Shown piece after piece: positions 6,665-60,568 of a DNA stretch of 64,000 nucleotides. The notes under the pieces were generated by a model that was given only the letters and a program-made list of their open reading frames with translations, ran no database searches and was not told the origin of the DNA. Position numbers and translations under genes: made by a program. Numbering within the stretch: position 1 is the stretch's first letter; every line of letters begins with the position of its first letter. Source of the stretch: a virus; the IMG/VR virus record IMGVR_UViG_3300035188_001379, positions 120,466 through 184,465 of that record; one strand, given 5' to 3'.

Positions 6665-7111
6665 ATGCCGGCAGAATCAAAAGCACAACAAAGACTAATG
6701 GGTATGGCGCTAGCAGCTAAAAGGGGTAAAGGAGAGTATAGCGATAAAGTAAAAGAGCTAGCTGATAGTATGAGTGAAAAGCAGCTTATGGAATACGCTA
6801 AAACTAAAATTTCAGACCTACCCGAAAAGAAAGCATTCATTCTAGGTTTTGTAAAAAAAGCCGAGGAATATAGCATATCTAAAAGCAATGCTCTCGAATT
6901 GCTGAAAGAGGCTGCCCCTGCTCTCAGAGCGCTGCAAGAAGTATTAGGTAGTTCTGCAGGGAGAGCACTTATGGAGGGAGTCGCCGATCCAACTAGAGCG
7001 GCTCTAGCAAGAGGTAAAGTTTCAGGACAAGATCTTATGCTAAGACGCAGGCTAGCTGATACTGCTAAAAAACTAAGAAGAAAGTTTAACACAGACCATA
7101 CGTCATTTTAA
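6665..7111 (+). CDS. DUF3008-like N-terminal domain fused to a GF-KRA helix module
   Basis: MPAESKAQQRLMGMALAAKRG...SMSEKQL resembles DUF3008 (recalled, not searched), then AFILGFVKKAEEYSIS. Confidence 0.7.
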   Translation: MPAESKAQQRLMGMALAAKRGKGEYSDKVKELADSMSEKQLMEYAKTKISDLPEKKAFILGFVKKAEEYSISKSNALELLKEAAPALRALQEVLGSSAGRALMEGVADPTRAALARGKVSGQDLMLRRRLADTAKKLRRKFNTDHTSF

Positions 7112-7129
7112 TTATAGGCTAGCCTGCGC

Positions 7130-9238
7130 ATGAACTACAACACACCTATTAGAGACGTTTCAAACCCTGTGATTAACGCAGGGCTTGAAGCTTTATTTGG
7201 CAAGAATCTTATTCCTTCAAGGCTTGAAGGAGAAGACATGATAGACGCTCTTAATAGGCGAGATCGTACACTAGCTTTTAGAGAGAGTGCTGCAAACAAT
7301 TTTGCAGATAATCCAATTGTTAGCCGCCTAGGTGAAAAAGGGTCTAAAGCCTTGGGTAAAATGGACGCACTCTCCGGGGGCAAGCTCAGCGGTTTCTTGA
7401 GTCCTATGCTTGGCGGTAACACATATAAGGCTACAGAAAATGTGCATAACATGCTGCACAATCCTGCAGCTATGAGTGCTTTTGGTGGAGGAAATCACAA
7501 TTCCGAGAATATTATGAAGGCATTACACAAGAACTTCTATAAGCATGCCGAGAATGCTTCTTTAGCGGGTAGCTATATTAATCAGAACATAGGAGAGCTA
7601 CCAACCATCAAAGAACCGGAGAGTATTTCTTTTACACCTGTAGACAATGGTAAGAAAGTAGGGATGGGCTCAGGCTCTAGCACTTTTGCTGGAAAAACAC
7701 CAGTACAACATGCTGAGCACTATCCTAGTCGCAGTGCAGATAAAGCTATCCCAAGAAAGTCTGGTAAAGCCACAATCTCAAAAATACCTATGGGACGTAT
7801 GCCTGCAGCTATGAGTAAAATGGCTCTAGATGATAAGAGTGACACACACACCTATAGAATGGAAGGTAACGTGCAAGGAGTAGGTTTGCGTAAAGCTCTA
7901 CATAAAATACTTGAGGAAAATAGACTCAATGGGCTTGCTGTGAACTATCCAGAAACAAACGAGGTATATGCTACCATACAAGGAAGGAAAAAGAGGATAG
8001 ATCAGATTCTTGATGAGCTTAAGGCCCGTCTGGCGGTGAGAGAAAAAAAGCCTCTGGCTTACGGAACAGACTATAGCATCGAGCACGCTCCAGCCATGAA
8101 GGAAAGGATGCGTAGGGTTGTATTTACTCCAAAAGATATAGAGGTGTTTGAGCAAAACAATCCTGAGCTCGATAAATTCAAAACAGTAGATCTAGAGAAT
8201 AAACTCAAATATTTTGAAGACCGCTATAGGCTACATAGAGACGCTCGAGGGAAGTTGAGAGGCAGTCTGCCCAATAAAGCCATAGACCAGTTGTTTAATG
8301 GTGCTCCTGTGTATCACAGACAGGTATTAGCGCGTAACGAGAATAACGAGAAAGCTGCGTTCTTTACAGGCTTTCTCAAAAGAGCTGCAGAACATGGCTT
8401 TAGCCGCGAGGACACTGTAAAGCTTGCTGCTACATATAAAGAAGCAGTGGCACTTTCAGGAATAGGGAAAGCTTTCGGCACAAAAATGATGCCAAAAATA
8501 TTTAACATGGCTCGCGGAGCTTTTGGCAGTCTTCGTTCACTAGGTTCTAGTGTACCTGAGGGGCCTCTACACACTGAAAGAAATGCAGCGTTAGAAGCGG
8601 GAAACAAGTTTATTGAAAACTTCAAACCTGAAGGTTTTCGTATGTACGCAGGTCGAGTAAAAACACCTGAGAGTCTTGCTGGGCATGGAGGAGGGGTTAC
8701 AAACGACTTGCTAGGTATTAGAATGAGGCCTAGCAAGGGAGGCTATACTCAGGAAAGCGCAGACAACCTTGTAAATCAATTAAGACAGGCAGGGGTAAAT
8801 GTAAGTGGGCAGAAAAAACTTGTAAGACCTGGGTATCACGGCTGGAACATAAAAGGAACATTGCCTCACGCTACTGGGGATGTACCTATCGAAGTGCAGA
8901 TGACTCCGAGAAGAATGCAGGGCATATTTGCAGCGAACCATGCGTATGTATACAAGCCAGAAACATCTGGAGTCTCTCCAGCGGTATCAAAGGGCATCTA
9001 TGACCCAGCATTAAACTATGTGACAAACGTGCTTTCACCGATGAGTAGCCCAGCCAAGAGAATAGGTTATGGTGCTGCCGGGGTAGGTGCGCTAGGTACA
9101 ATGGGCGGTGTTGGCTATAACGCTGTAAAAGGACCAAATAACGCAGCGCAAAACAATGGAGAAGCCTTCAATAGTCAGGCTATATATGATAGAGTTCAGA
9201 CTAGTCCCGCTAGCTATCTAGCTCAGCAAACAAGATAA
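7130..9238 (+). CDS. Multidomain protein: acylphosphatase-like domain, GF-KRA module, RelA/SpoT-like nucleotidyltransferase domain
   Basis: GNVQGVGLR (about 7865); AFFTGFLKRAAEHGFS (about 8357); GRVKTPESL, DLLGIR, GYHG, IEVQMT (8651-8905). Confidence 0.75.
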   Translation: MNYNTPIRDVSNPVINAGLEALFGKNLIPSRLEGEDMIDALNRRDRTLAFRESAANNFADNPIVSRLGEKGSKALGKMDALSGGKLSGFLSPMLGGNTYKATENVHNMLHNPAAMSAFGGGNHNSENIMKALHKNFYKHAENASLAGSYINQNIGELPTIKEPESISFTPVDNGKKVGMGSGSSTFAGKTPVQHAEHYPSRSADKAIPRKSGKATISKIPMGRMPAAMSKMALDDKSDTHTYRMEGNVQGVGLRKALHKILEENRLNGLAVNYPETNEVYATIQGRKKRIDQILDELKARLAVREKKPLAYGTDYSIEHAPAMKERMRRVVFTPKDIEVFEQNNPELDKFKTVDLENKLKYFEDRYRLHRDARGKLRGSLPNKAIDQLFNGAPVYHRQVLARNENNEKAAFFTGFLKRAAEHGFSREDTVKLAATYKEAVALSGIGKAFGTKMMPKIFNMARGAFGSLRSLGSSVPEGPLHTERNAALEAGNKFIENFKPEGFRMYAGRVKTPESLAGHGGGVTNDLLGIRMRPSKGGYTQESADNLVNQLRQAGVNVSGQKKLVRPGYHGWNIKGTLPHATGDVPIEVQMTPRRMQGIFAANHAYVYKPETSGVSPAVSKGIYDPALNYVTNVLSPMSSPAKRIGYGAAGVGALGTMGGVGYNAVKGPNNAAQNNGEAFNSQAIYDRVQTSPASYLAQQTR

Positions 9239-9245
9239 TTTAAGC

Positions 9246-13528: not shown

Positions 13529-13896
13529 CTACACCAGCAGTAATCAATGCAGTTGCAAATTGCACTACCGCTTTCTCAGCTCTAGCGCTACTTATTCATA
13601 TTTTTGGAGACCCTGACAACAGTGTATGGGACAACAATATCAAAGCATGGTTAGCCAAGTCAGGCTTATCCGTAGTTGTCTGTGGAGCTATAGCGAATGT
13701 GCTCACCCTAAGCTCTCCAGCAACATCAGAGATAGTACTCAACTGCGGCATGAGTCTTACATTTTTCTGGCTTAGTTGGTGGCAGTGGGAGATGTTTAAA
13801 GAGATGCAGCGAGAGAGCGAGCGTAAAAGAATTGCTAGAAATAAAAGAAATACAGTTAAAAAACAAACAAAGCGTAAACCAGCAAAAACAGTATGA
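13525..13896 (+). CDS. Membrane protein (second holin-like gene)
   Basis: Three hydrophobic segments, basic tail, ATGA-coupled to both neighbours. Confidence 0.55.
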   Translation: MTTPAVINAVANCTTAFSALALLIHIFGDPDNSVWDNNIKAWLAKSGLSVVVCGAIANVLTLSSPATSEIVLNCGMSLTFFWLSWWQWEMFKEMQRESERKRIARNKRNTVKKQTKRKPAKTV

Positions 13897-14927
13897 ATCT
13901 AGAAGATTTTAAAAACGGATGTAACAAGCAAAAAGAAGACTCTAGAGACAGAGTCTATAAGCCAAAGATCGTTCATTGGACGCATCTCAATGATATAGAT
14001 CTTCGGAAAGATTGCAGCGCACCTAGAGCTCAAGGAAACATTGGTTCGTGTACTGCTTTTGCTGCCACAAGCATGTTTGATTTTGTGAGAAGGAAAAACA
14101 GCATGGTGAGCTGGCAGCCTAGTCCTCTTTTCACATACTACGCCACACGAAAAGCAGTAGATCCTGTACTAACAGATTCTGGAGCAACTGTACGAGACGC
14201 TCTTAAAAGTGCCGCAAGAGATGGAGTAAGTATGGAGCGGGTATGGCCATATATCGTTGAGAAGTATAACGAGCATCCGCCAGAAGAGGCGTGGAATATT
14301 GCAGAAAAGCATCAGGCTCTCGAGTATCTAAAGCTCAATGACTTTGATAAGAGCGAATGGCTTAACTGTCTCCATGAGGGATATCCTTTTATATTTGGAT
14401 TAAACCTATATGCGTCTTTCTTTGATCCTTTCATGCAGCTTCTTGGAGGATTCATGCTAGATCCTGATAGAGAAAATGAAAAGCTTGTGGGCGCACACTG
14501 CATGATGGCTGTTGGTTATATTAAGAACTACAATAATAAAGAGTATCTCATAGTTCAGAACAGCTGGGGCACTGGTTGGGGAGACGGTGGTTATTGCTAT
14601 ATTCCACTAAGCTATATCATGACTAACGATAGCTTTGATTTCTGGACAATTAGACTTACAGAAACTAGCGACGAGTACGCTAGCGATCCTATCGAAGAGC
14701 CTAAGCCAGAACCAAAGCCTGAGCCAGTTCCTGAGCCTGCGGTAGAACCTCCTGCTCCTGAACCTGAACCTATAGTAGAACCTCCCTCTCCTGTTGTAGA
14801 GCCTGTTGTAGAGCCTGTCGCACCGGCCCCGGCGGTAGAAGTAGTGGAAGCTAAGCGCAAAAACCTACCATTCTATATAGTAATGGCTATAGGTGTGCTA
14901 CTCTTACTTGTTTTTATTTTTGGATAA
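13893..14927 (+). CDS. Papain-family (C1A) cysteine peptidase with Pro/Glu linker and C-terminal membrane anchor
   Basis: QGNIGSCTAFA (Cys), GAHCMMAVGY (His), QNSWG (Asn); PEP-rich linker; FYIVMAIGVLLLLVFIFG tail. Confidence 0.9.
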   Translation: MNLEDFKNGCNKQKEDSRDRVYKPKIVHWTHLNDIDLRKDCSAPRAQGNIGSCTAFAATSMFDFVRRKNSMVSWQPSPLFTYYATRKAVDPVLTDSGATVRDALKSAARDGVSMERVWPYIVEKYNEHPPEEAWNIAEKHQALEYLKLNDFDKSEWLNCLHEGYPFIFGLNLYASFFDPFMQLLGGFMLDPDRENEKLVGAHCMMAVGYIKNYNNKEYLIVQNSWGTGWGDGGYCYIPLSYIMTNDSFDFWTIRLTETSDEYASDPIEEPKPEPKPEPVPEPAVEPPAPEPEPIVEPPSPVVEPVVEPVAPAPAVEVVEAKRKNLPFYIVMAIGVLLLLVFIFG

Positions 14928-14931
14928 ATCT

Positions 14932-15930
14932 ATGCTAAAGCTTGCTAAATATATTGAAAAAACTGGGATGAATCTCAGTTACATGAAGAATGCGCTTAGA
15001 GCTGCTCGCGCTGCGGGTGTACCTATTCTTCGAAGTGAGGATGCACTAAAGTCTCATATAGCCCAAAACGTGACACCCTCTTTTTTAAAGAAAATCCCTT
15101 TCATTGGAGAACGGATGCACGACGCTACAACTAACCTTGGAACTAATGCGTTAACCTTGAAAGGGCCTGTAGCTGTGCCTGGCCATAATTTTGTATACAT
15201 GCCAAGAAGTTTTACAAACGGAGCAGGACAAAATTATTCTCCTAGAGCGACATTGTTACATGAGTTAGGCCATATACAACACATGCAAGAAGATCCAAAG
15301 TCTTTTGGAACAATGGGTCAGTTAAATCGTGTTTTTAGTTCACCCGTAAATGCTAGAAGTAGAATGAATCTAACTGAAACTATAGCGAACAACAACGCAA
15401 TTATGGATATGCGTGCAGCTAATGTTCCTGAGCATTTAATAGATACATATAAAACTAGGGTGCAGTCTCCTTTTCATAATAGTTATGGGCTAAACCTAGA
15501 AAATATTGGAAATAGCCCTACTGGGAATATGAATTTACCTAGAAGAATTTTGCACGGTGCAACACAAAGACTTTCAGATATGGGAAAAAATATTGCAGGA
15601 ATTGGAAAAAGTTTTTGGCAAAGCTTTAAAAAACCCAAGCAACTAGATGCAAATTTTTCTGGAACGGTACCAAATACCCAGGCAAGCCTGCCTGGACCTT
15701 TAAGACCGTACAAACCATCAGCCGACTTCATGAGCAAATTTAACGCCTCTTTAGGCAAAGCTAACAATGCGGCAATTTCTCCTGTCATGGAGCGCCCTGC
15801 GCATATCCCTGCGCGACAAGCCGAAGTTCGAAGATTTTCAAGTAAAGCAACAGGTTTTGCTCCACTAAAAAAGATCCCAGTTTACACACATCCGGCTGCA
15901 CAAGAATTTAACGTACCTTATTCAGTATAA
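14932..15930 (+). CDS. HExxH zincin-like protein with YIEKTG leader
   Basis: LLHELGH followed by ETIAN. ATG at 14932 preferred over the track start, which overlaps the peptidase. Confidence 0.6.
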   Translation: MLKLAKYIEKTGMNLSYMKNALRAARAAGVPILRSEDALKSHIAQNVTPSFLKKIPFIGERMHDATTNLGTNALTLKGPVAVPGHNFVYMPRSFTNGAGQNYSPRATLLHELGHIQHMQEDPKSFGTMGQLNRVFSSPVNARSRMNLTETIANNNAIMDMRAANVPEHLIDTYKTRVQSPFHNSYGLNLENIGNSPTGNMNLPRRILHGATQRLSDMGKNIAGIGKSFWQSFKKPKQLDANFSGTVPNTQASLPGPLRPYKPSADFMSKFNASLGKANNAAISPVMERPAHIPARQAEVRRFSSKATGFAPLKKIPVYTHPAAQEFNVPYSV

Positions 15931-15975
15931 AATAAATCTTTATCTGGAGCAAAGCAATTGCTAGAATTACAAAAT

Positions 15976-17103
15976 ATGAGCGCAGATCAAATACACATGC
16001 TAGGCTTTATTAAAAGAGCTTCTCAATACGGTTATTCAGAAAGAGAAATTGAATACCTTTTGAAGCAGGCTTACGGACTTCCTTCAAATTTCGTACCGAA
16101 TACTCCAGGTAGCTTAGCCGCCCCTATAGCTACTTCTGTTACAGGAGGAAAAGTTCCAGAGTCGCTAAAACCTGAGTATCAAAGCAACTCTCAAGCAGGA
16201 ATGATGAGCGGTTCAAATTTTTATTCTTCTCCTCAACCGGCACAGTCGGCAGCTGCAGCTCCTGCAGCAAATCCAACACCAGCGCCTGCTCCAGTTCAAG
16301 CAGGTCCTAGCGATGCGCAGCTAGCAAAAATTATGGGCAGCTACAATCCCAAGTCGAAGCTAGACCAAACAAAAGCTACAAGAATTCGAGAGTTATATGG
16401 GCAGGGTACAACTTCACCCAGCGCCATATATGCCGATAAAGCTTATAGTGGAATAACGCCTAAATCTATTAGAGCAGGAGGAGCACCGCAACCTATTTCA
16501 ATACCAACAAAAACAGCCAGCATGAATACACAACAACACTCATACATCTACGGATTCGTAAAAAGAGCCATGCAATATGGTTTTAGCGAGCAGCAAGCAT
16601 TGAACATTTTCAAGAACGCTGCTGAACTTAAGGGCGACCAGCATAAGCTCGACGTCGATAAAGACGGTAAGATCGAGGCTTCTGACCTTAGGAAGTTGAG
16701 ACAGCGCAAGCAGGCTGCGTTCATGAAGCAGTCTGACCTTGGTGATGCGATGATGGCCGGCGCTAATTATATTCAAGATAAGGTAGTAAATCCTGTTTCT
16801 ACGTTTGCGCAAGAGAAGATTGTGGCCCCTGTAAAGCAGTATATGAGCAGACCAGACCCTTTTGACCCAGCTAACAGAGCTCAGTTTGATAAAGGAGCCA
16901 AAGGAAGTTATATTAGAGAAAGAGCTCTAGCTGATAAGGCTAATAGTGCAGCTGCAGGAGACGTTGGTACTTTCGCAGGAGGAACTGGTACTTTAACTGG
17001 AGGTACAGTAAATGCAGGTACAGTAAATGCAGCTCCAGTCGCTAGACCTGCGGTACGCGCTCCTGGTGTAACTGCCGTTAAACCTGTTGTAGCTAGACCA
17101 TAA
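15976..17103 (+). CDS. Modular low-complexity protein with two GF-KRA modules and an EF-hand-like motif
   Basis: HMLGFIKRASQYGYS; SYIYGFVKRAMQYGFS; LDVDKDGKIEASDL. Confidence 0.7.
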   Translation: MSADQIHMLGFIKRASQYGYSEREIEYLLKQAYGLPSNFVPNTPGSLAAPIATSVTGGKVPESLKPEYQSNSQAGMMSGSNFYSSPQPAQSAAAAPAANPTPAPAPVQAGPSDAQLAKIMGSYNPKSKLDQTKATRIRELYGQGTTSPSAIYADKAYSGITPKSIRAGGAPQPISIPTKTASMNTQQHSYIYGFVKRAMQYGFSEQQALNIFKNAAELKGDQHKLDVDKDGKIEASDLRKLRQRKQAAFMKQSDLGDAMMAGANYIQDKVVNPVSTFAQEKIVAPVKQYMSRPDPFDPANRAQFDKGAKGSYIRERALADKANSAAAGDVGTFAGGTGTLTGGTVNAGTVNAAPVARPAVRAPGVTAVKPVVARP

Positions 17104-17108
17104 ATAAT

Positions 17109-17366
17109 ATGACCCCCGAAGAAGCATATATCGAAGGATTCGTGAAAAGAGCAACACAGTATGGACTTAGTGAAGCTGAGGCATTTGAGCTGTTAAAAAG
17201 CGCTGTCGACCAAGATGCAGTAGCACAACCTGGTATGAGATCCGCTACGGCTAAACCTGGTCCTGAGCGTTACGTACCTCCAGCTCCTCCTACTGGTGTG
17301 CCAGCAGTCTCGCTTGACTCTTTAGATAGTCGTAAAAAGGGTCCCGTAGCGCAAAGAAGAAGATAA
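17109..17366 (+). CDS. Small GF-KRA module protein
   Basis: MTPEEAYIEGFVKRATQYGLSEAEAFELLKSA. Confidence 0.7.
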   Translation: MTPEEAYIEGFVKRATQYGLSEAEAFELLKSAVDQDAVAQPGMRSATAKPGPERYVPPAPPTGVPAVSLDSLDSRKKGPVAQRRR

Positions 17367-17370
17367 GCGT

Positions 17371-18642: not shown

Positions 18643-18644
18643 TT

Positions 18645-20494: not shown

Positions 20495-21469
20495 ATGAAT
20501 AGTACTGAGGCATATCTTCAAAAAGTTGCTACAGCTTGGAAGGAGCGGCTTAGAGCTGGAGTACTAGGCACAAAATCTTTAGGTAAAATACTAGACCGGG
20601 CAGGTATGTCTAGACCTGATGAGGGAGTTAAAAGATTACACGAACGTGTTTCTCATCCTGCGTACGCTAAAGGGCAAGAGTATCATAACCCTATGAGAGG
20701 ACGCCCGATAAAACGTAACCCGAACTACACCTACGACAACACGCGCAAAGATCTGAAACAGATCAGCCGCGCGTTGGCTGACAGATCCGGTGAATACAGG
20801 TCATCTGATCTTTTCAGTATTTTTCCAAGCTATAAGGGGCATTTAGATAGAAGGATTGTTGACGGGTACACCAATTACATAGCACAGAACGCAGGTGAAG
20901 ATGGTGCTGTCTTGGCGAAGCTAGTAGCCAGACGGGATAAAACCCCCATTTCATCAAAAAAATTCATAGGCAGCAGTGAGGGAGTTATTCCTTACGATCG
21001 CAATAAGCCTTGGCATGAGCAACTTAAACAAACGCGACAATCACCATACGGAGCGGGTATGGCTCTCCAAGATATAAGTGCAGCATTAGCTCCTTTAGGT
21101 ATAGGGAGCCCTACTGCCAGACATGAGATTGCACATCTCATTGATAGTAGTCTTCCTCGAGCTGATAGGTTTGCTGTTTTGAAAGAGCTGCATCAAACAC
21201 TTAGAAGAAATCCTGAGGTTATGAGGGCTATAGCTAGGCAGGGTTTGGAGGGGTCTGTGTTTATACGTGAAGGAATGGCGCAAATGATAGCCAGTAAAGG
21301 CAATTCAAATTCTGCAAAAAGATTTATTTCTAAATATATTGATGCTGCGAAAAACTCAGGCATAGATGATTTGCTGCGGCTGCTTCCTAAATCCTTAGAA
21401 AAGGATCCTTCGGGGCGAGATGCTGCCGTAATAACTCAATTGATGCGTAACTATGAGCTTCGGGTTTAA
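20495..21469 (+). CDS. HExxH zincin-like protein, paralog of the C-terminal domain of 9246-13172
   Basis: YLQKVA-TAWKERL; RHEIAH...REGMA; shared AVLKELHQTL(K/R)RNPEVMR, GNSNSAKRFI, DPSGRDAAV. Confidence 0.72.
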   Translation: MNSTEAYLQKVATAWKERLRAGVLGTKSLGKILDRAGMSRPDEGVKRLHERVSHPAYAKGQEYHNPMRGRPIKRNPNYTYDNTRKDLKQISRALADRSGEYRSSDLFSIFPSYKGHLDRRIVDGYTNYIAQNAGEDGAVLAKLVARRDKTPISSKKFIGSSEGVIPYDRNKPWHEQLKQTRQSPYGAGMALQDISAALAPLGIGSPTARHEIAHLIDSSLPRADRFAVLKELHQTLRRNPEVMRAIARQGLEGSVFIREGMAQMIASKGNSNSAKRFISKYIDAAKNSGIDDLLRLLPKSLEKDPSGRDAAVITQLMRNYELRV

Positions 21470-22323: not shown

Positions 22324-22731
22324 ATGAATACCCAGCAACAAGCGTATATCTACGGATTCGTAAAAAGAGCAGCCGAGCACGGTGTTAGCGAAGATAAAGC
22401 TCTTGACCTCTTGAAAGAAAAAATGGGGCCTTTCGACGCTGAGCGTGCTGCCGACATGCTTGCAGCAGAGGTAAAGCTTAAAGCGTTAACTCACAATAAA
22501 AAAGAACACCCGTACCACTACTATTTAAATCCTTTTGTAGGAGGTCCTCTTACAGAAGTAATGACTAAGTTAGATAGACGTGGTTATGCAGGAATAGCAG
22601 ACGACGAAGTACTCGCACATCATTTAATTGGAGGGCCTTTGTTAAATATGTACAGGGGAGGAAAAGAAACAAGAAACAAGGTTAGAGAAAAGTTCAATAA
22701 AGCTGTGGAAGACTATTCTGGAGAAAAATAA
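22324..22731 (+). CDS. GF-KRA module protein
   Basis: MNTQQQAYIYGFVKRAAEHGVS. Confidence 0.7.
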   Translation: MNTQQQAYIYGFVKRAAEHGVSEDKALDLLKEKMGPFDAERAADMLAAEVKLKALTHNKKEHPYHYYLNPFVGGPLTEVMTKLDRRGYAGIADDEVLAHHLIGGPLLNMYRGGKETRNKVREKFNKAVEDYSGEK

Positions 22732-22754: not shown

Positions 22755-23492
22755 ATGAGCAAAGCTATACAATATCTTGAAAAACTGGCAGCAAAAAAAG
22801 AAAAAGAAAAAGAGCGGGGTATAGGGTTAAGTGGGGTAATAGGAGCTCCATTACTCGCTGCTGGTGTTTTGGGGCTGGCCGGCAGTGTTCCTGCCACTAA
22901 GATGCTTTTACGCGGAGCTCGGGTGCCAGAGAAAAAAACCTTACTGTCTAAGCTAATGCCTAAGAGTTACGATGCGCGGGATTTTGTTGCGGACTATATT
23001 GCTACAAGTCGCGGTGTAGGTCATACACCATATGCAAAGCCTTTAAAAGCGTACGCAAAGACACAAGCAAAGCCTTCTATCACATATCCAACAGCTGAAT
23101 TGGCTGTGAAAGAGATGGAAGACCACTACGATAGCTTCTTGTCTAAAGATCCAAGAAATGCGGTACGTAAATGGATTGATGAAGTGGTTGCACATAAAAA
23201 AGAAAATTTTATTAAAAATAACCCCGATTTTAAAGGAAACAGAATTACTCAAGATTTCGAAGCACGAGGACAAAAATTAAAAGATTATATAGCGCAACCT
23301 CACGAAGACACACTAAAACTTATAAGAGAAATAGAAGATCCTGAGCTTTTAAAAATGCTGATCAATATGCAGTCACAAAAGGCAAAGGTTTCTGGTTTTT
23401 ATGGTAAACTCGGTCTTGGTGGTTTAGGTTTGGCTGGAGTTGGGGCAGGGCTTGTAGGAAAAGAAATTTATGACCAGTCACAAAAAGAATAG
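22755..23492 (+). CDS. Protein with YLEKLA leader and two Gly-rich hydrophobic segments
   Basis: MSKAIQYLEKLAAK; GLSGVIGAPLLAAGVLG; GLGGLGLAGVGAGLVG. Confidence 0.65.
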   Translation: MSKAIQYLEKLAAKKEKEKERGIGLSGVIGAPLLAAGVLGLAGSVPATKMLLRGARVPEKKTLLSKLMPKSYDARDFVADYIATSRGVGHTPYAKPLKAYAKTQAKPSITYPTAELAVKEMEDHYDSFLSKDPRNAVRKWIDEVVAHKKENFIKNNPDFKGNRITQDFEARGQKLKDYIAQPHEDTLKLIREIEDPELLKMLINMQSQKAKVSGFYGKLGLGGLGLAGVGAGLVGKEIYDQSQKE

Positions 23493-25395
23493 CGAGAGTA
23501 ATTCTGAAAAAGCTGAAAACGCGCTAACCGTTGCCTCTGGTGGATTAGGGGCAGCGGCCTTGGCTAAATTTATATACTCTGGAGGTCTGCGCGGAGTAGA
23601 TCTAGATGCTGCGCCTAGTGTGCAGATTATGAGTAACAACGAGGGGTCTTTTGGTAATCAGGCAAAAGGACTAGAAAGTTTGCTGAAGGCCGAAGGCATC
23701 AAGACTGCCCCATTTTCATGGGGGTTTACTGGAGCAGGTGAACGTAAGCCTGGTTGGCAAAGAATTCTGCATGCTCCGTTTAGTGATGCCTCAATATATT
23801 TAGGACATAACACAAATGTTCTTAAACATCTAGCTGATATAGGTAAACTGAAGTATAGAGTAAATACTGACTTCAGAGAGGGTAATTTTTTAAGCCCTCA
23901 CATACTGCATCATGGCGGATCCGGTGAAACGTTAAAGCAAAGCTTGGCGCGTAAAATAATCTTACTGCTCGGAGGCGGAGATAAAATGGCGGTAAGAGAA
24001 AACCCTAAACACTACGATAGGTTTTTTACACCAGGAGACGCGTCGGAAGCAATGCCTGAGATGTATCAAGGTAAAAAACCGTCTGTAATGACGGGCAACA
24101 TACCTACAAGAGATATATTTGGAGAAACTCCATATAATGAAAAAAAATGGAGTCCAGGAGAAAAAATAAAAGCTATACTCACAACAGGAGGAGGCAACGC
24201 AATGCCTCAAGTTTTTGACGAGCTTGCCTCGGAGCATGCTGGGCTAGCCAAAGGGGCACCTAGACCATCTTTGTACGATGTAGATAAAAGATGGATATCT
24301 CCGAAGCCCTGGAGAAACTATGATGTAAAGAAAAAGTTTTTCATAGATGACATCCTTGAGAATTTAAGAAAAACGCATGGAAAAGATAACGTAGAATTAG
24401 ACTGGCTAACTGGGTATAACCCTAAAGTTACAGCGTGGCCAGGCAATGTAGAGCTTATGCATGAGCTTAGGGAGCATATGAAAACTCCTGAAGGTGCAGA
24501 AAGGTTCAAGGGATTGAACGTACTGGATCATATAGATGATATGCCTAAGGCTTTTTCTGATGCTCACTATATTTTTGCTACTCCGGGGAGTACTGTAGCT
24601 GAAGTGATGCGTATGCCTGGGGAGCATGTACCTAAACTTGTGAATATGCTTCCAAATCAGGAGGCGGAGGGGTACATGAATCACTTTACAACAAACGCAA
24701 ACGAGACAGTCAAAAAGTTTCCAGGGGCTAAAGTGTGGGATGCCACCGCAGAAGACAGAAATGCTGCTCTTGCTAAAATAATGGCAGAGCCTCACAGCAT
24801 AGCAAAAGGCAGAACTAAAGGCTACGAAACAAGCATGGGAGATATTGGGAGAGTTATTCGAGAAGACGTCAAACAAAACAAAGTTAAAAACATAAAAACT
24901 CTTTTGGCGCTTACAGGTGCAGGTCTTGGAGCTTTCGGATTATCCAGGGTAATTAAAAAAATAAGAGAGCTGCGTGCAAAAAAACCTGAAAAAGAAGAGA
25001 CAAAGCAAGCCGAGTTCTTTTCAAAGATCGCTAGCTTCATAAAAGCTTCAGGCAGCGACATCGATATCATGTTTGATAAAAAGGTAGAGACAAAACCTAA
25101 AGACCCTCTAGATGGCAGGCTTAAGAAGAACAAAGCTATTGTAGAGGTCAAAGAAACAGGGTTAGAGGAGCCCAAGCTGCACAAGCATAAAATAAAAATA
25201 GCTCTCGAGAAACTTAGAGGAGGAAAAGGAGACCGTAAATCAGACGAGTCTTTTTCGAGTAGTGAATTAAGAAAGGGAACCACACACGAGCTAGAGCATA
25301 CAAAAGATAAAGAGCTTGCGAAAGAAATCGCTAAAGATCATTTGAGTGAAGTTAAAGACTATTACTCGAAGCTACAAAAAGCAAATATAGACTAG
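23470..25395 (+). CDS. GT-B glycosyltransferase-like protein (MurG/MGDG-synthase-like C-lobe) fused to a DUF5661-like C-terminal domain
   Basis: LTTGGG; LDHIDDMPKAFSDAHYIFATPGSTVAE; C-terminal GTTHELEHT...AKEIAKDHLSE..DYYSKL (DUF name recalled, not searched). Confidence 0.6.
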   Translation: MTSHKKNSESNSEKAENALTVASGGLGAAALAKFIYSGGLRGVDLDAAPSVQIMSNNEGSFGNQAKGLESLLKAEGIKTAPFSWGFTGAGERKPGWQRILHAPFSDASIYLGHNTNVLKHLADIGKLKYRVNTDFREGNFLSPHILHHGGSGETLKQSLARKIILLLGGGDKMAVRENPKHYDRFFTPGDASEAMPEMYQGKKPSVMTGNIPTRDIFGETPYNEKKWSPGEKIKAILTTGGGNAMPQVFDELASEHAGLAKGAPRPSLYDVDKRWISPKPWRNYDVKKKFFIDDILENLRKTHGKDNVELDWLTGYNPKVTAWPGNVELMHELREHMKTPEGAERFKGLNVLDHIDDMPKAFSDAHYIFATPGSTVAEVMRMPGEHVPKLVNMLPNQEAEGYMNHFTTNANETVKKFPGAKVWDATAEDRNAALAKIMAEPHSIAKGRTKGYETSMGDIGRVIREDVKQNKVKNIKTLLALTGAGLGAFGLSRVIKKIRELRAKKPEKEETKQAEFFSKIASFIKASGSDIDIMFDKKVETKPKDPLDGRLKKNKAIVEVKETGLEEPKLHKHKIKIALEKLRGGKGDRKSDESFSSSELRKGTTHELEHTKDKELAKEIAKDHLSEVKDYYSKLQKANID

Positions 25396-42098: not shown

Positions 42099-42368
42099 AT
42101 GCTAGGTTCAATCTACAGCTTTGTTAAGCTGGCCAAGTCAACGCAGCTTAAAAGACTCATCGAGGCTAAAGAGCGTTCCGACAAAAACGATTACGCTAGC
42201 AAAAATCGAATACTAGGAGAGCTGCTCAATACTCATCCTAGACAATTCAAGATTGATTCTGTTTTGAATCAAAAGTATGTAGGGCTTACACATAAACCTA
42301 CAGGGTTCCGGATACATGCCCCAAGAAAGCTGATACCGGAGGGTATAGAGAACGCTGTGCAAAAATAA
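42099..42368 (+). CDS. Hypothetical protein with FVKLA leader
   Basis: MLGSIYSFVKLAKS. Confidence 0.6.
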   Translation: MLGSIYSFVKLAKSTQLKRLIEAKERSDKNDYASKNRILGELLNTHPRQFKIDSVLNQKYVGLTHKPTGFRIHAPRKLIPEGIENAVQK

Positions 42369-54741: not shown

Positions 54742-54882
54742 GTTGTTTTGTGTTTTTAGTTGTTGATGATAGCAACAGACTTTCAGGCAACAGGAACCAA
54801 AGGTTCCCAGAGGATCGCTGATCTACTCCATTGCTATAATAATTATCTATGTTGCTAGATAGATAATCAAGATAAATTACCA

Positions 54883-55551: not shown

Positions 55552-56154
55552 CTAGGACTCTAGTAGCTTTTTTAAGTAGGCTTTATTAGCTTCGTCTTTC
55601 AAAAGATTTTCTAGTTCTGGGTATTTTGCAACGAGCTCAAGCTCTTTTGGTTGTTTTGCGCTAGCTGCGCGAGCAGGGTCATTTATAGCAAAACCGAGAG
55701 CATTAGTTTTAGTTACTTGATTGAGAACACTGTTAGCTATCCTTCGATTGACTGCATCTCCGAAGCTGTCAACGAGATCAGCTTGTTTTATAGGACTTGC
55801 ATACGCTCTGGGGCTACTAATAGAGCTCACTGTACCTGGGTCAGGTGTCAGAAAGGAAGGTTTTTCGTGAGATGGAAGATATGTTCTTCTTGCTGCGTTT
55901 CCTTTGTTACTTTTTCCGCCAGACATACCCATAAGCGCTGCTAGTCCAATAGGGGCAACAGCCTTAGCGATTTCGCCAATTTCTCCAAGCCCGTTAGATG
56001 CGCTTCCTAGCAAGCTTGAGCCTCCGGCCAGAATTCCTCCTCCAACAAGAGCAGGAGCCACAACCTTCTTGGCAACAGCCCCGTAGTTTATGCTTCCGCT
56101 TTTTTCAAGCTCTTCACGGAATCCTTCAGTTAGTTTTTCCCAGTCAAGATTCAT
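55552..56154 (-). CDS. K-x-A family protein with Gly-rich hydrophobic segments
   Basis: WEKLTEGFREELEKSG-SINYGAVAKK; IKQA-DLVD. Confidence 0.65.
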   Translation of the reverse strand: MNLDWEKLTEGFREELEKSGSINYGAVAKKVVAPALVGGGILAGGSSLLGSASNGLGEIGEIAKAVAPIGLAALMGMSGGKSNKGNAARRTYLPSHEKPSFLTPDPGTVSSISSPRAYASPIKQADLVDSFGDAVNRRIANSVLNQVTKTNALGFAINDPARAASAKQPKELELVAKYPELENLLKDEANKAYLKKLLES

Positions 56155-56158
56155 AGGA

Positions 56159-56893
56159 TTAAGCGTAAGGTTCAAGTTCAACACGAGTAGGCAGCGCCTC
56201 TTCAGTATAAGATTCAGGACGTTCCCTCATCTTCTTGCGTAGCATATAGGTAAGATACGCGGCTCCTGCGCCTGTACTCAGAAGCCCTGATGCGGCAGTA
56301 TCTATTGCGGGCTGAAATGGCTTTTTCGCCACGCCCCCAAGTTCTCCTAAGAGTCTACGAATGCTTCCTTCTTCAATTGCTGTATCGTTGGGATCTTCTG
56401 CTTCTTTTTCAAACATAAGCTGATAGGCTACCCCGTTACAGAATGCATCCACGCAAGGAGTTTCCTCGCTTGAGGAATCAGAGCCTGTTTTGATCTGGCT
56501 CAAAACGTCGATATACTCTTTCTGGGCTTGGGCTAGCTCTTTCTGAATTCTTTTCTTTTCGGCAAAATAGAAATCTTTCTTAGCCTGTCCAAAACCTTGC
56601 TGACTTCCTAGTAAAAGCTGAATAGGTACGTTTTGTGTTTTTACAGCTCTCGAAAATATGCCAGGAGCATCAAGGTCTTCAGCAACCTTTGCGGAAGGTA
56701 GCAAGGAGGCGGGAAGAGGAATTCTAAGAATGTTAGAGTCTTCTTCCTCAAGCCTGGCCTGCTCGAGGCGTTTTCTAAGCTCGTTTTCTTTAGCAAGTTG
56801 AATTGCGCTGAACAAACTGCGCCCAAAGAGATTCGAGGCTTCCTGAGACTCTTCAGGAGAGAGAGGTATAGGTGTAGAAGATTCTTTTAGCAT
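56159..56893 (-). CDS. K-x-A family protein
   Basis: AKVA-EDL; FEKEA-EDP; hydrophobic segment near the C-terminus. Confidence 0.65.
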   Translation of the reverse strand: MLKESSTPIPLSPEESQEASNLFGRSLFSAIQLAKENELRKRLEQARLEEEDSNILRIPLPASLLPSAKVAEDLDAPGIFSRAVKTQNVPIQLLLGSQQGFGQAKKDFYFAEKKRIQKELAQAQKEYIDVLSQIKTGSDSSSEETPCVDAFCNGVAYQLMFEKEAEDPNDTAIEEGSIRRLLGELGGVAKKPFQPAIDTAASGLLSTGAGAAYLTYMLRKKMRERPESYTEEALPTRVELEPYA

Positions 56894-58008: not shown

Positions 58009-58875
58009 CTATTGAGTTTTGATCGCCATGCTTCCTAGCGTAGCTGCAGCTGAAGGAAGTATAGAGTATATTTCGTGTGATGTGCGAGAGGCAGGATTCA
58101 TTGCACGCTCGGTTACTCTGTCTGGATTGATATGGTCGAGTACTTTAGACAAGCCTTTGCTCGCAGCATAGCCTCCTACGAGACTAGTAATTGGTCTGCT
58201 TGCGTGAGAGGCCACAAAGTTAGAGCCAAAGTCGCTTACTCCGTGAAGTACAGACTTTAAAGCAGAAGAGGCCTCCTCTGCATCCATCTCAAAGGCCTGC
58301 TTCATGTGATCGTTTCCTCCCTCAAGCAGACTTGAGGTGTTAATTACTGCTGAGGGGCTCTCTGTGGTTGCCGACTCGCTCAGATCACCCATTTCAGGCT
58401 TGAGATTTTCTTCCATAGCTTTGAGCTTTGCTACGAACTTTTTGCTAGGAGAGTATCTCCAGTTTTTACCTTCCTCATGCTGAAGCATGAAGGTAGGATT
58501 TTTTCTGCCGTCAGCAAGAGTCATATAGATGTTGTCAGGACTGCTTCTATGAATCTGCGCTGTACCTTTACCTATAGCGTCTTTGTCGAAATCGAGAATG
58601 CTATCCTCGCCCAGTCTACTTACCTTAGCGTCTTCGCTAGGATATTCTTCTCCTAGTCCTCCGAAGCTATAAACAAGGTTGCCGTCGCTGAGTTTTAGTC
58701 CGTCGCGAGTACGCACATACTTCCATTTTGCCTGACCTGCCAGTGTGGGTAGAATGTTCTCGTTAACAGGCATGCTAGAGATGTCCAGAGCCTCTTTAGT
58801 AAGGGCTCTCGCACTCTTCTCTAGTTCTTCCTGCACTCCAAGACAGAAGGCAGGCATATAGACACGCATTACCAT
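58009..58875 (-). CDS. K-x-A family protein
   Basis: AFCLGVQEELEKSA-RALTKEA-LD; MKQA-FE. Confidence 0.65.
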   Translation of the reverse strand: MVMRVYMPAFCLGVQEELEKSARALTKEALDISSMPVNENILPTLAGQAKWKYVRTRDGLKLSDGNLVYSFGGLGEEYPSEDAKVSRLGEDSILDFDKDAIGKGTAQIHRSSPDNIYMTLADGRKNPTFMLQHEEGKNWRYSPSKKFVAKLKAMEENLKPEMGDLSESATTESPSAVINTSSLLEGGNDHMKQAFEMDAEEASSALKSVLHGVSDFGSNFVASHASRPITSLVGGYAASKGLSKVLDHINPDRVTERAMNPASRTSHEIYSILPSAAATLGSMAIKTQ

Positions 58876-58876
58876 A

Positions 58877-60568
58877 TTACGGTTGAGGTTGTTGAGGTGG
58901 CGGAAGGCTCGCAGAATAGCTCTGAGGCGTCTCGGGTGCCCCTACAAAAGGATTCTGTCTGTTATAGGCTGCAGCAAAAGGATTCATGCTGTTTGCTCCT
59001 GAGCCGTACGGATCTTTCCACTTGTTCATCATCTGAGGAAGATAGTTGTAGCCTGCGATACCTCCTAGGATAGGAGCAATGAGTCCTCCTGCCCCTTCAA
59101 GACCCATTTCTCTAGAGATCAGCATAGCCAGCAATGCTCCTCCCACTGCTCCTGTCGCCTGGTTGCTCATGAATGGAACAACTCTATGGCGATCAGCCTG
59201 CAGACCTGAAGCGTCTTGCGCTGGACTTGCTCCTCCTACTCCTAGTCCGTTTAGTGCTTTTTTGCCTCCATACAAACCTAGTCCTGTTGCGGCTAGCGCA
59301 CCAGCAGGCCCAAAGGCTTTATACGCCCCTAGGGCTCCTGCACCTGCAAGAGGACCAAGCGGGCCTAGGATAGGAGAGGCTAAAGAACCTAGCATGCCTC
59401 CAGTAAACGCACCTTTCACTCCTTCCCATGGAGCAAATCTGAACATTCCCTTTCCTGTGCTGCGTGTGCCTGTAGCCACATGAGGAGCTGCCTGGTCTGC
59501 CCAGCTGGGAGCATTTTCTACTCCTGTGTGTCCTATGTCTGCGGCATGACCTTTCATCTTTTCTAGATGGTCAACAAGCCCCTGATCTGCCGGATGTGTT
59601 TTGCCTGGAGTGGTAGAGTGGATGTTTGTGACTCTGGAAGCCACACCCTTACCTACACCTGATCTTGCAGCAAGAGGATCGAATTTTCCTGCGCCAATGT
59701 CTTTGAGTGCTTGCGCTGCGTCTGTTTTGGCTGAGCCAGTACCGAACTCTGCAGCATGAAGGGTGTCTAGATAGGTTCTGTCTAGAATTCCCTGGTTTTC
59801 TTTAGCAAATCCTTCAGTCAGCTGAGATGCAGCGTCAGATTTCATCTTTTTGAGCGCGCTGAAGGCTTTGCTGTTTTGCTTATAGAGATCAGGATTGCTG
59901 GCCATCAGATCCTCGGCAAGCCCGTAAGATCGCGCTCCCTTGAGTTTGTCGAGCCCTTCTCCATGAAGCACTTTACCTGCGTCGTCGACGAATGCTCCAA
60001 ATTGCTGTCCTTTGGCGATAGCTTTCTCTGCGGCAGGAGCTGACCTTGCATTCCTAAATACTCCCTTGGCCACGTCGCCTAGAGCTTTGTAGTTTCCTCC
60101 TCTAAAGAGTTGCATACCTAGATTTCCTAGATTGGCCAATCCTTTGAGGTTGACGGCTTCTTTTGTCATTCCGTCGATGAAAGCGTCGTCTGCTCCTTCT
60201 TTTCTGAGCTCGTCAACAATTCCTTCCCATACACGGACCGCCTCGATTTGTGCTGCCTTCTCGAAGCATTCTGCACTCTTTGTGAAAGCGTCGATCTCGG
60301 TCTCTGAGTATGATGCACTCTCGCAGAGGCTGGCCATTTTTTTCAGCTCTCGATTCAGATACGCTAGATAGTTTGATTCCTCTCTTTGCTTCTCGAGAGC
60401 ATTCTTCTCTAGTGTCTCCTCTAGCTCCCGCACTATTCCCTCGTAGAAAGGGTTCTGGGCACCCGCCTGCTTCTGAATCTCTAGGAACAGAGAGTCTAGA
60501 GTCTTCTCGTTGCTCGTCTGCTCTCCCAAGAGGGCTTTTTTCGCTAGTGGATGGTTCGTTCTGTTCAT
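58877..60568 (-). CDS. K-x-A-rich protein with Gly-rich hydrophobic C-terminal region
   Basis: Several KxA sites in the first 140 aa (KQA, KNA, KMA, KSA, KAA, KEA-VNL); Gly-zipper-like segments. Confidence 0.7.
   Translation of the reverse strand: MNRTNHPLAKKALLGEQTSNEKTLDSLFLEIQKQAGAQNPFYEGIVRELEETLEKNALEKQREESNYLAYLNRELKKMASLCESASYSETEIDAFTKSAECFEKAAQIEAVRVWEGIVDELRKEGADDAFIDGMTKEAVNLKGLANLGNLGMQLFRGGNYKALGDVAKGVFRNARSAPAAEKAIAKGQQFGAFVDDAGKVLHGEGLDKLKGARSYGLAEDLMASNPDLYKQNSKAFSALKKMKSDAASQLTEGFAKENQGILDRTYLDTLHAAEFGTGSAKTDAAQALKDIGAGKFDPLAARSGVGKGVASRVTNIHSTTPGKTHPADQGLVDHLEKMKGHAADIGHTGVENAPSWADQAAPHVATGTRSTGKGMFRFAPWEGVKGAFTGGMLGSLASPILGPLGPLAGAGALGAYKAFGPAGALAATGLGLYGGKKALNGLGVGGASPAQDASGLQADRHRVVPFMSNQATGAVGGALLAMLISREMGLEGAGGLIAPILGGIAGYNYLPQMMNKWKDPYGSGANSMNPFAAAYNRQNPFVGAPETPQSYSASLPPPQQPQP

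Follow-up and report, generated by a model that had tools for sequence, protein, structure and literature searches.

In a window of 64,000 nt that makes up the right-hand third of a phage genome of 184 kb (IMG/VR record, 94% complete), unrelated proteins share blocks that end in Lys-x-Ala (K-x-A), which raises the question of whether this pattern directs proteins into the capsid and marks where they are cut. The initial annotation had proposed that it is a packaging and/or cleavage signal; our analysis confirmed its observation in part and partly supported its interpretation. Genes were called as plain longest ORFs (Table 1), shuffled controls keep composition only, and an unbiased scan ranked about 900 two-residue (dipeptide) patterns against expectation. 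The closest cultured relative of the phage is the distant orphan Salmonella phage Arash, not phiKZ.

Table 1. Genes and features of the window, with positions in nt of the window.
Feature	Position	Strand	Evidence
DUF3008 (residues 3-56) with internal GF module, 148 aa	6665..7111	+	Pfam PF11450, E 3.6e-13
GF module of 148-aa protein, preceded by E-K-K-A	6821-6928	+	module HMM, i-E 1.9e-18
Multi-domain protein, 702 aa	7130..9238	+	domains listed singly
Acylphosphatase-like domain of 702-aa protein	7811-8026	+	Pfam/NCBIfam
GF module of 702-aa protein	8345-8452	+	module HMM
Pol-beta-fold NTase of 702-aa protein, resembling small alarmone synthetases	8510-9109	+	AF2 and Foldseek
Beads-on-a-string protein, 1308 aa	9246..13172	+	sequence map, Pfam, PHROG
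GLWANI mini-domain of 1308-aa protein	11040-11183	+	PHROG mini-domain match
P-loop kinase of 1308-aa protein	11178-11543	+	Pfam AAA_18
DUF6321 of 1308-aa protein	11754-11978	+	Pfam
CWEGY mini-domain of 1308-aa protein	listed between DUF6321 and zincin-like domain	+	PHROG mini-domain matches
HExxH zincin-like domain of 1308-aa protein	12141-13133	+	40% identity, E 1e-58 to free paralog
Papain-family (C1) peptidase	13893..14927	+	Pfam PF00112, E 1e-12; L003 ortholog 84% identical
HExxH (HELGH) protein, short leader ending K-L-A and K-T-G	14932..15930	+	sequence
381-aa protein, two GF modules (15979-16086, 16528-16635)	15958..17103	+	HMM i-E 1.8e-18, 1.8e-20
85-aa protein, N-terminal GF tag and basic Pro/Ala-rich tail	17109..17366	+	HMM i-E 7.5e-20
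Free zincin-like paralog (HEIAH)	20495..21469 (20459-21469 in the paralogy comparison)	+	paralogy with fused copy
135-aa GF-tagged protein	22324..22731	+	AF2 helical hairpin
245-aa protein, single-helix leader ending E-K-L-A	22755..23492	+	sequence
641-aa protein, C-terminal DUF5661 mini-domain also in relatives	23470..25395	+	Pfam PF18905, E 1.2e-6
89-aa protein, F-V-K-L-A at residues 8-12	42099..42368	+	weak, possibly chance member
210-aa protein, leader ending E-E-L-E-K-S-G, paralogous to that of the 288-aa protein	55552..56184	-	sequence
288-aa protein, leader ending E-E-L-E-K-S-A	58009..58875	-	orthologs in L022-L024

A longer form of the motif, said to occur about six times, is indeed present as six G-F-(V/L/I)-K-(R/K)-A copies with their flanks, at the annotated places (first base of the Gly codon at nt 6845, 8369, 16003, 16552, 17136 and 22354). 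G, F, K, A and S are invariant in their alignment, and an HMM built from the six recovered each of them at i-E 1e-16 to 1e-21; no family in Pfam, PHROG or NCBIfam corresponds to this GF module. It is a helical hairpin of 33-36 aa ending in L-L-K-x-A. In the AF2 model of the 135-aa protein, built from 72 aligned sequences and with pLDDT 84-95 for residues 1-30, a helix at residues 3-18 is followed by a turn and a second helix from residue 23; both helices look alike and are also similar to the single-helix leaders. Midway along helix 1 there is one K-x-A (GFVKRA), an odd place for a site serving cargo release alone. The HMM, run over the whole genome, also gave lower-scoring copies beyond the window (genome nt 11106, 25865, 16425 and 16023; 4-5 in all). 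The profile matches 523 public protein clusters, nearly always within residues 2-35 of a small basic protein, and the tails that follow are unrelated. Among its 147 top matches the module is N-terminal in 134, and the tails sort into 69 groups unrelated to one another (median length 116 aa), 88% net positive and only 2 TM-like. Complete relatives carry 8-12 copies per genome, mostly within one array; homologs of the 85-aa protein are metagenomic only and without assigned names. Modules inside longer proteins keep 'MNTQ' and therefore derive from gene fusions. Between paralogous modules DNA identity is 44-68% and synonymous codons are scrambled, being the same at only 22-75% of identical residues; the module is kept by selection at the protein level.

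We found that K-x-A forms the last residues of conserved blocks. Across 214 GF instances information content is 3.2 bits at the terminal Ala (A 80%, S 13%, with K at 91% two positions earlier), then 0.7 and then about 0.4. The third position of K-x-[ASG] was the exact end point of local similarity 208 times, compared with 12-36 at neighbouring offsets, and after exclusion of GF ends K-x-A still gave 32 compared with 3-14; control motifs were flat. K-x-A/S/G also terminates at least five other mini-domains: GLWANI, DUF6321, DUF3008, 'CCPxEKTA' and EF-hand-like blocks, the last ending in R-K-Q-A in the 381-aa protein. In that protein K-T-A stands before the internal GF module, which retains 'MNTQQ'. 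At the corresponding junction cyanophage DUF6321 proteins carry E-G-A instead, so K-x-A is not intrinsic to this domain. K-x-A sites are kept in orthologs of 33-45% identity. In the 1308-aa protein K-x-A/G stands at each junction of residues 586-970, and its pieces occur recombined in relatives, which shuffle mini-domains at K-x-A junctions; in one relative, from a comparison of orthologs in L022-L024, a CWEGY mini-domain stands as an insertion directly behind the K-Q-A of the 288-aa protein's leader. The free HEIAH zincin has its leader's Q-K-V-A directly before TAWKERL, and the fused copy has E-K-N-A-S before TAWKKRL. The idea that the phage strings together diverse effectors fits these sequence arrangements and the multi-domain proteins.

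Several examples quoted for domains starting directly after the motif were inexact. EKSA lies 5 residues upstream of GLWANIH and SKQA 3 residues upstream of AWQRSEG, and the NTase core said to adjoin YKEA begins about 60 residues downstream. The Pfam RelA_SpoT model does not match this 702-aa protein; Foldseek matches of the AF2 model are only to Pol-beta NTases and alarmone synthetases and are weak (E 3e-3 to 4e-2), and in the ESM atlas a viral RelA_SpoT cluster came up as a lead (0.85). Its N-terminal domain is common to a 1445-aa structural-region protein (blastp E 8e-15). The HELGH protein, without a family match in Pfam, PHROG or NCBIfam, weakly resembles zincin units that are part of fusions in L006 and L009. 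An ortholog search with the 245-aa protein found none.

In the cargo family bare K-x-A shows no enrichment: 12 'cargo' proteins contain 42 compared with 39.5 in shuffles (K-x-[AG], 63 and 73.6), and in the unbiased scan of the cargo cluster it ranked only 361st of 1060 patterns. Leaders ending in the motif have modest support, since 24 of 207 proteins have Phi-[Phi/E/Q]-K-x-[AG] within residues 1-30, compared with 29 of 671 later windows of 30 residues; some are chance. The figure of about 18 proteins is roughly right under a loose leader criterion, with some of the matches surely accidental. Accidental-looking leaders include those of the NUDIX protein and of the 89-aa ORF, the latter with neither family nor ortholog support. 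The effective signal extends beyond the tripeptide, either to a hydrophobic residue at P5 together with a P1' that is small or acidic, or to the entire 33-aa hairpin.

The same pattern is the most over-represented one in the head-assembly module outside the window. There K-x-A ranked 1st of 894 patterns (76 observed, 33.2 expected, z 7.4), as it did in the head modules of relatives L013 (76, 30.1), L010 (72, 36.4) and L014 (71, 36.1) and in Arash gp218-226 (46, 21.1), with z from 5.4 to 8.4 across the five sets; these modules are homologous and therefore not independent samples. In the rest of this genome it stood at background (791st), and for the tail parts of L010 and L014 its ranks were 369th and 265th. 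Of the seven K-x-A-richest proteins, six belong to the head module, the candidate protease included. As calibration, the same scan placed I-x-E, one form of the known T4 protease motif, 1st and L-x-E 5th in T4 head proteins ([LI]-x-E 55 against 28.9 expected, and 25 against 26.7 in non-head proteins). At head-module sites P5 is hydrophobic in 55% (background 33%) and P1' in only 13% (background 35%), and GF ends have the same flanks. Because bare K-x-A is unenriched in the cargo cluster, the link between cargo junctions and the head motif rests on these shared flanks and on GF copies in the head module. The prohead protease sought in the rest of the genome was found as a candidate at genome nt 14077-15525, matching as sole family the PHROG 'head maturation protease' (E 1.8e-9), with no match to Pfam S77, S78 or S78_2 or to a PDB sequence. 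The gene directly after it, at the scaffold position, has two divergent GF modules, and its Arash counterpart two 'EAVELVKEA|S' repeats. The major capsid protein has K-x-A at the same aligned N-terminal position here and in Arash (27.9% identity). The head module, which lay beyond the view of the initial annotation, lends strong statistical support to the idea that K-x-A may be a cleavage signal.

In the explanation we prefer, and to which we give about even chances, K-x-A would be a head-maturation protease site and the GF module a capsid-targeting tag. The candidate protease would recognise K-x-A, more fully a site with a hydrophobic residue at P5, Lys at P3, a P1 that is mostly Ala and more rarely Ser or Gly, and a P1' that is small or acidic. 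The 33-aa hairpin and its single-helix short forms would be capsid- or scaffold-core-targeting tags ending in this site. Tagged proteins would co-assemble with the scaffold-position protein, itself holding divergent GF hairpins, be enclosed in the prohead and then lose the tag to the protease, and beads-on-a-string proteins would be cut at every K-x-A junction into separate units travelling with the DNA. We infer cleavage, protease identity, packaging and injection from sequence.

Such a system suggests a likeness to the load-and-cut capsid cargo of T4, in which internal proteins carry a capsid-targeting sequence (CTS) cut off by the prohead protease gp21 at L/I-x-E, and the CTS has been suggested as an evolutionary route for loading varied proteins into capsids (review PMC9026906). 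In both, a short conserved N-terminal helix is found on divergent small basic proteins, and the tag-end motif is over-represented also in core, scaffold and capsid proteins. In contrast to T4, the putative tag is a two-helix hairpin of 33 aa and not 10 residues, the motif is K-x-A, the candidate protease shows no Peptidase_S77 homology, the family is far larger (8-12 copies per genome, 523 clusters), and putative tags also occur inside fused multi-domain proteins. Herpesvirus assemblin cuts at hydrophobic-x-Ala followed by Ser, and the assemblin fold is common to the prohead proteases of tailed phages; the P1 Ala, upstream hydrophobics and small P1' are alike, whereas the P3 Lys is specific to this phage group. 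The prohead proteases gp175 of phiKZ and gp245 of SPN3US recognise S/A/G-x-E, and in phiKZ-like phages many head proteins have N-terminal propeptides with multiple motif copies, the cleaved proteins being packaged with DNA and then ejected (PMC10052503, PMC5694885, PMC9026906). Our phage resembles these giants as a large myovirus with multisubunit RNA polymerase genes; with P1 Ala instead of Glu, the likeness would be in processing scheme rather than in motif or in a demonstrated protease relationship.

Polyvalent proteins likewise combine several unrelated enzymatic or effector domains per polypeptide, including RelA/SpoT-like NTase and zincin-like units, and their delivery with DNA and proteolytic release of units were proposed (Iyer et al. 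2017, PMC5512222). The sections of that work drawn on here define neither a junction motif nor a targeting tag; the hallmark domains they describe were not seen in our phage, its zincin-like units match no curated model, and most members are small and single-tailed. The tag-cargo scheme as a whole is already known from the T4 CTS and polyvalent proteins, and what we propose would, if true, be a variant of the T4 system not described before. Polymorphic toxins have demarcation motifs, VENN in CdiA and DPxGL in Rhs, and there are also MuF-fused phage toxins. They share with our proteins a conserved N-terminal part, a sharp motif and unrelated C-terminal parts, but the tails here are mostly short basic low-complexity peptides and not recognisable toxin domains, and this genome has no MuF domain.

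A less probable alternative, though one to be taken seriously, is that K-x-A is part of an amphipathic helix unit (roughly E-A-Phi-x-Phi-Phi-K-x-A) serving contacts (scaffold self-association, capsid or portal binding) or as a helix cap, with the GF hairpin docking or oligomerising and no cut. Since the K-x-A-richest head proteins are helical, scaffold-like and acidic, and a repeated helix unit with K-x-A at its end is common to part of the enriched ones, the over-representation could be a structural or binding repeat; the confident GF hairpin, the likeness of its helices to the leaders and the retention of sites in diverged orthologs, expected of structural residues, agree with this. However, conservation stops abruptly at the Ala without gradual decay, any block may follow the at least five unrelated mini-domain types ending in K-x-small, and P1' avoids hydrophobics, which is unexpected for helix packing. 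Furthermore, there is no enrichment of Phi-Phi-E-x-A, of Phi-Phi-R-x-A or of the pattern in reverse, and the counterpart signal in T4 is its protease motif.

It is rather unlikely that, in the manner proposed for polyvalent proteins, the junctions are cut inside the infected cell, once the proteins have been delivered or expressed, by peptidases of the cargo cluster (three HExxH zincin-like domains or the C1 peptidase, a candidate alternative processing enzyme), the capsid protease being uninvolved. HExxH units are fused into or beside bead proteins here and in relatives, and the C1 peptidase is conserved in the cluster. Papain-type enzymes prefer a hydrophobic P2 and a basic P1, which would suit a cut after Phi-K. 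The polyvalent-protein model gives processing to an MPTase domain (PMC5512222). Nevertheless, the top rank of K-x-A specifically in head-assembly proteins, those of Arash included, would be left unexplained, the zincin-like domains are without a match among curated peptidase families, and most GF-tagged genes encode small single-unit proteins without an attached peptidase.

Chance and composition (K and A are common, and examples were picked afterwards), with the GF module alone real, are very improbable as an explanation: the background level in the cargo set, the inexact examples and the accidental-looking leaders speak for it, but not the first rank in five head-module sets with background elsewhere, the exact offset-0 spike at block ends that survives GF removal, or the independent insertion precisely after a leader's K-Q-A. 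For the head module and block ends chance is largely refuted, and it holds only for single weak examples. Hardly credible at all is the notion that the GF module and the junctions act at the DNA level, as recombination handles by which cassettes are shuffled, and not as peptide signals, for although mini-domains are shuffled among relatives, internal modules retain traces of gene fusion and conserved Vsr-like and HNH endonuclease genes lie inside the cluster, no long identical DNA tracts were seen at junctions between paralogs, the head-module enrichment would be unexplained, three codons are too few for a junction to recombine by homology, and the paralogous modules have diverged in DNA and codons as given above.

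The six copies of the long motif described in the initial annotation were all recovered at their positions, and a profile built from them retrieved 4-5 weaker copies in the remainder of the genome. The motif belongs to a conserved helical unit of 33-36 aa ending in L-L-K-x-A (GF module), which in a confident AlphaFold prediction folds as a helix-turn-helix hairpin. When 1.8 billion representative proteins were searched exhaustively with the module profile, 523 clusters matched (E<=1e-3), and in 134 of the 147 top hits the module is N-terminal, starting at residue 2-5 of a small protein. The tails that follow it fall into 69 unrelated groups with a median length of 116 aa and are rich in Ala, Pro and Gly; 88% are net positive, and membrane-like tails are almost never seen. 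The tails resemble the small basic internal proteins of T4. Each complete relative (190-204 kb) has 8-12 copies, most of them in a single array that is syntenic with the cargo cluster of the window. Internal copies often retain the initiator ‘MNTQ’ and hence originated by fusion of neighbouring genes. No family in Pfam, PHROG or NCBIfam covers the module, a tblastn search of 50,697 GenBank phages with a GF-tagged protein found none that matched, and the module profile found nothing in the cultured Salmonella phage Arash, a distant relative. The GF tag family is undescribed.

Positions of the features discussed (w, window; g, nucleotides of the whole virus record; aa, amino acids)
Feature	Position	Remark
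Cargo cluster	w ~6.6-25.4 kb	Tagged and multi-domain proteins
Long-motif copies	w near 6833, 8357, 15995, 16540, 17125, 22340	
702-aa protein	w 7130-9238	Acylphosphatase + Pol-beta NTase; N-terminal unit at 7130-7550
1308-aa protein	w 9246-13172	P-loop kinase + DUF6321 + HExxH domain
Papain-family (C1) peptidase	w 13893-14927	
85-aa GF-tagged protein	w 17109-17366	
Tandem DUF1501 genes	w 17371-20006	Full length; E 1e-112, 1e-127
Free zincin-like paralog	w 20495-21469	
Vsr/DUF559-like and HNH endonucleases	w 21485-22293	Kept in the cluster of nine relatives, 60-75% identity
Leader protein	w 22755-23492	
PduO-type cob(I)alamin adenosyltransferase and ribonucleotide reductase	w 44760-48402	Adjoining
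238-aa ALTTAQ protein	w 54025-54741	Three repeats; PF20080, E 2e-16
Minus-strand gene with leader	w 58009-58875	
Candidate prohead protease	g 14077-15525	phrog_18299 ‘head maturation protease’, E 1.8e-9, residues 64-227
Scaffold-position protein	g 15585-16721	Two divergent GF hairpins
313-aa head protein	g 16783-17724	
1445-aa tail/baseplate-region protein	g 30064-34401	
352-aa acidic protein	g 54103-55161	About 66 kb upstream of the window
Split protease ortholog	L013:9941-12544	Segments: residues 5-158 and 158-482
Shine-Dalgarno check regions	w 6635-9245, 14902-14931, 15946-15975, 16492-16521, 17079-17108, 20465-20494, 22294-22323, 22725-22754, 42069-42098	

The short K-x-A motif had been proposed to mark domain boundaries throughout the cargo proteins. 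As a bare pattern it is not enriched there (42 seen against 39.5 expected, and 63 against 73.6 for K-x-[AG]), and at two of the quoted junctions the motif lies 3-5 residues away from the domain, but conserved blocks do end at K-x-A. Over 214 GF instances the Lys carries 3.6 bits and the Ala 3.2 bits (A 80%, S 13%), and information content falls to 0.7 bits at the residue directly after the Ala and then to about 0.4. When 390 proteins of the clusters were compared all against all, 208 C-terminal ends of similarity fell precisely on the final residue of K-x-[ASG], compared with 12-36 at other offsets; after removal of the GF module ends, 32 similarity ends still fell on K-x-A and 3-14 at other offsets. 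The control patterns E-x-small, R-x-small, D-x-small, K-x-aliphatic and the reversed pattern produced no spike of similarity ends. The GLWANI block terminates in K-L-T-K-x-[ASG], the EF-hand-like block in R-K-Q-A, DUF6321 in Phi-K-E-[ASG] (Phi, hydrophobic residue), DUF3008 in K-K-A and one additional block in E-K-T-A. Moreover, DUF6321 is preceded by six different partners, each terminating in K-x-[AS], and in an ortholog of the minus-strand leader gene a CWEGY mini-domain is inserted directly past the K-Q-A of the leader. In T4-like cyanophages the junction before DUF6321 reads E-G-A, not K-x-A, and K-x-A is therefore a property of this phage group and not of the domain.

Similar beads-on-a-string proteins with DUF6321, CW-x-GY and other mini-domains were seen in 514 marine cyanophage and pelagiphage records, among them Synechococcus phages S-RIM2 and S-B43 (L020, L021) and Pelagibacter phage HTVC115P (L019), and some are annotated as structural and adjoin capsid genes. 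A literature search on DUF3008, DUF6321 and DUF5661 found no papers. The endonucleases of the cargo cluster could be drivers of mini-domain shuffling.

The strongest evidence for a K-x-A signal comes from the head module, the head-assembly genes outside the window. The initial annotation had suggested looking for a prohead protease in the rest of the genome, and a candidate was found there, homologous to proteins of Arash, of Vibrio phages and of Bacillus phage G; Pfam S78, S78_2 and the gp21-type Peptidase_S77 (PF03420) had no match in the genome, and comparison of the candidate with PDB sequences returned noise only. The gene directly after it, in the scaffold position, encodes two divergent GF hairpins. 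We scanned every two-residue pattern with gaps of 0-2 residues (about 900) against a composition-based expectation, the null models of the scans and shuffles keeping composition only. K-x-A ranked 1st in the head-module proteins of this phage (76 vs 33.2 expected, z 7.4), in the head parts of the related genomes L013 (76 vs 30.1), L010 (72 vs 36.4) and L014 (71 vs 36.1), whose head modules are homologous and so are not independent samples of the enrichment, and in gp218-226 of Arash (46 vs 21.1). Outside the head module its rank was 791 of 1200 in the remainder of this genome, 265 and 369 in tail parts of relatives and 76-385 in cargo clusters. The same scan of T4 gp20-gp24 placed I-x-E 1st and L-x-E fifth, together the known gp21 motif, [LI]-x-E being seen 55 times in head proteins (28.9 expected) and 25 times in non-head proteins (26.7 expected), and the T4 head proteins contain no Phi-Phi-K-x-A; hence the scan recovers a known motif, and the head proteins of T4 lack the K-x-A signal.

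Of the seven proteins that are richest in K-x-A, six lie in the head module, the protease among them. At the head-module sites P5 is hydrophobic in 55% compared with 33% of background sites, P1' is occupied by E, A or S in 56% and by a hydrophobic residue in 13% (background 35%), and the GF module ends have the same flanks. Furthermore, 10 of 14 Phi-Phi-K-x-A sites keep K-x-A/S in orthologs that are 33-45% identical, and the capsid proteins of this phage and Arash share K-x-A at one aligned position near residue 25-29. In the Arash capsid protein, gp226, the site reads L-V-K-E-A, and Arash gp220, gp221, gp223 and gp225 have Phi-Phi-K-x-A sites. The published virion list of Arash, with 116 proteins, is too inclusive to reveal processing (PMC10585845). 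Two further loci were noted. The two similarity segments of the protease ortholog in L013 lie about 1.2 kb apart, a spacing suggestive of a split gene or of an inserted intron, intein or homing element. The 352-aa acidic protein, encoded far from the head module, has the largest K-x-A excess of the genome (15 vs 2.4, p 3e-8), and its ortholog in the relative L012 has four Phi-Phi-K-x-A sites; the protein is possibly an additional component of the scaffold or core.

Tentatively, and with the odds somewhat against the scheme as a whole, we propose a two-part code common to a clade of ~150-200-kb uncultivated phages, in which the 33-aa hairpin would bring whatever protein is joined to it into the prohead and an assemblin-like head protease with P1-Ala specificity would free that protein by cutting at K-x-A; each lineage would deliver dozens of swappable basic peptides and enzymes in this way, with in-frame mini-domain swaps at the sites, and the same protease motif would operate in Arash. 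By analogy with T4 (PMC9026906) and phiKZ-like phages (PMC10052503), K-x-A would be the site of the head protease, the GF hairpin and single-helix short forms would direct proteins into the scaffold core, perhaps by pairing with those hairpins that the scaffold-position protein carries, and multi-domain proteins would be cut at their junctions. Beyond the presence of the motif and the constraint on it, we infer each of these steps. The observation of the initial annotation is partly confirmed and its reading as a packaging and cleavage signal partly supported.

K-x-A could instead belong to a helix unit that serves structure or binding and is not cut. The junctions could also be cut by the cluster's own zincin-like or papain-family peptidases; the motifs HELGH, HEIAH and HEISH are visible, and Pfam, PHROG and NCBIfam give no match for them. 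That the zincin unit begins at the same boundary whether free or fused holds for one paralog pair in this genome, but no further homolog was recovered, as a single-protein locus search with the free zincin found no match and a homolog search returned only the zincin itself. For individual weak leaders chance is possible. The leader protein listed in the table had no ortholog among five relatives. A DNA-level recombination handle is unlikely, since paralogous GF copies are only 44-68% identical in DNA and their synonymous codons are scrambled, so that selection acts on the peptide.

As in the T4 capsid-targeting system, proteins that are otherwise unrelated and mostly small and basic begin with a conserved short peptide, and, in statistical terms only, this tag ends in a motif over-represented in core, scaffold and capsid proteins; the motif itself differs (K-x-A, L/I-x-E in T4). 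The multi-domain proteins resemble polyvalent proteins (Iyer et al. 2017; PMC5512222) in that a single phage polypeptide combines several enzymatic or effector domains of unrelated kinds; in that account self-processing is assigned to a zincin-like MPTase, and here only HExxH motifs without a family match are seen. Phage_Mu_F (PF04233), the mark of MuF-fused polymorphic phage toxins, gave no match in the genome. The RelA-SpoT domain assigned to the C-terminal part of the 702-aa protein is weakly supported: Pfam RelA_SpoT matched neither there nor elsewhere in the genome, and Foldseek matched only Pol-beta NTases, weakly (E 3e-3 to 4e-2, TM about 0.38), but the longest alignments were to the small alarmone synthetases SAS1, RelP and SAS2, and a language model gave one lead (ESM atlas, high score). 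The N-terminal ~130 residues of this protein are common to the 1445-aa protein and to ORFs downstream of the cargo cluster in the relatives L001-L004; the unit may be a second kind of virion-targeting domain.

If the proposal holds, these phages possess a second system of capsid cargo loading and release, independent of that of T4 in sequence, with its own tag and protease motif and with a cargo set far larger and more diverse. It would also account for a large unannotated family from uncultivated phages (the 523 clusters without a Pfam or PHROG family), give a function to the K-x-A-rich head proteins of Arash and supply a candidate tag with which foreign proteins could be packaged into large phage heads. 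As the rank of I-x-E in T4 illustrates, a prohead-protease motif can be read from sequence by an unbiased pattern scan of head-module proteins, and the candidate K-x-A motif is immediately testable in a cultured phage.

The source record of 184,465 bp, of which the window covers bases 120466-184465, is 94% complete (CheckV); among cultured phages the orphan Arash and three Vibrio phages are closest to it, with major capsid protein identities of 27-28%. Genes were called as longest ORFs. Of eleven starts that were inspected, ten of genes and one at an internal Met, none is preceded by a Shine-Dalgarno-like sequence, the upstream regions being just AT-rich; ribosome-binding sites are therefore no guide to internal translation starts, an idea that was set aside. 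The window encodes PhoH, a B12-type ribonucleotide reductase, dCMP deaminase, glycosyl- and methyltransferases, a 2195-aa fibre-like protein and a multisubunit RNA polymerase beta-type fragment; the 238-aa ALTTAQ protein lies among minus-strand genes near RNA polymerase fragments. The PduO-type adenosyltransferase and the B12-dependent (class II-like) reductase constitute a phage-borne cofactor-activation pair. In addition, the tandem DUF1501 genes within the cargo cluster are kept in the relatives L003 and L004 with 71-81% identity. DUF1501 is typical of Planctomycetota and Verrucomicrobiota, and the pair is therefore a possible clue to the host.
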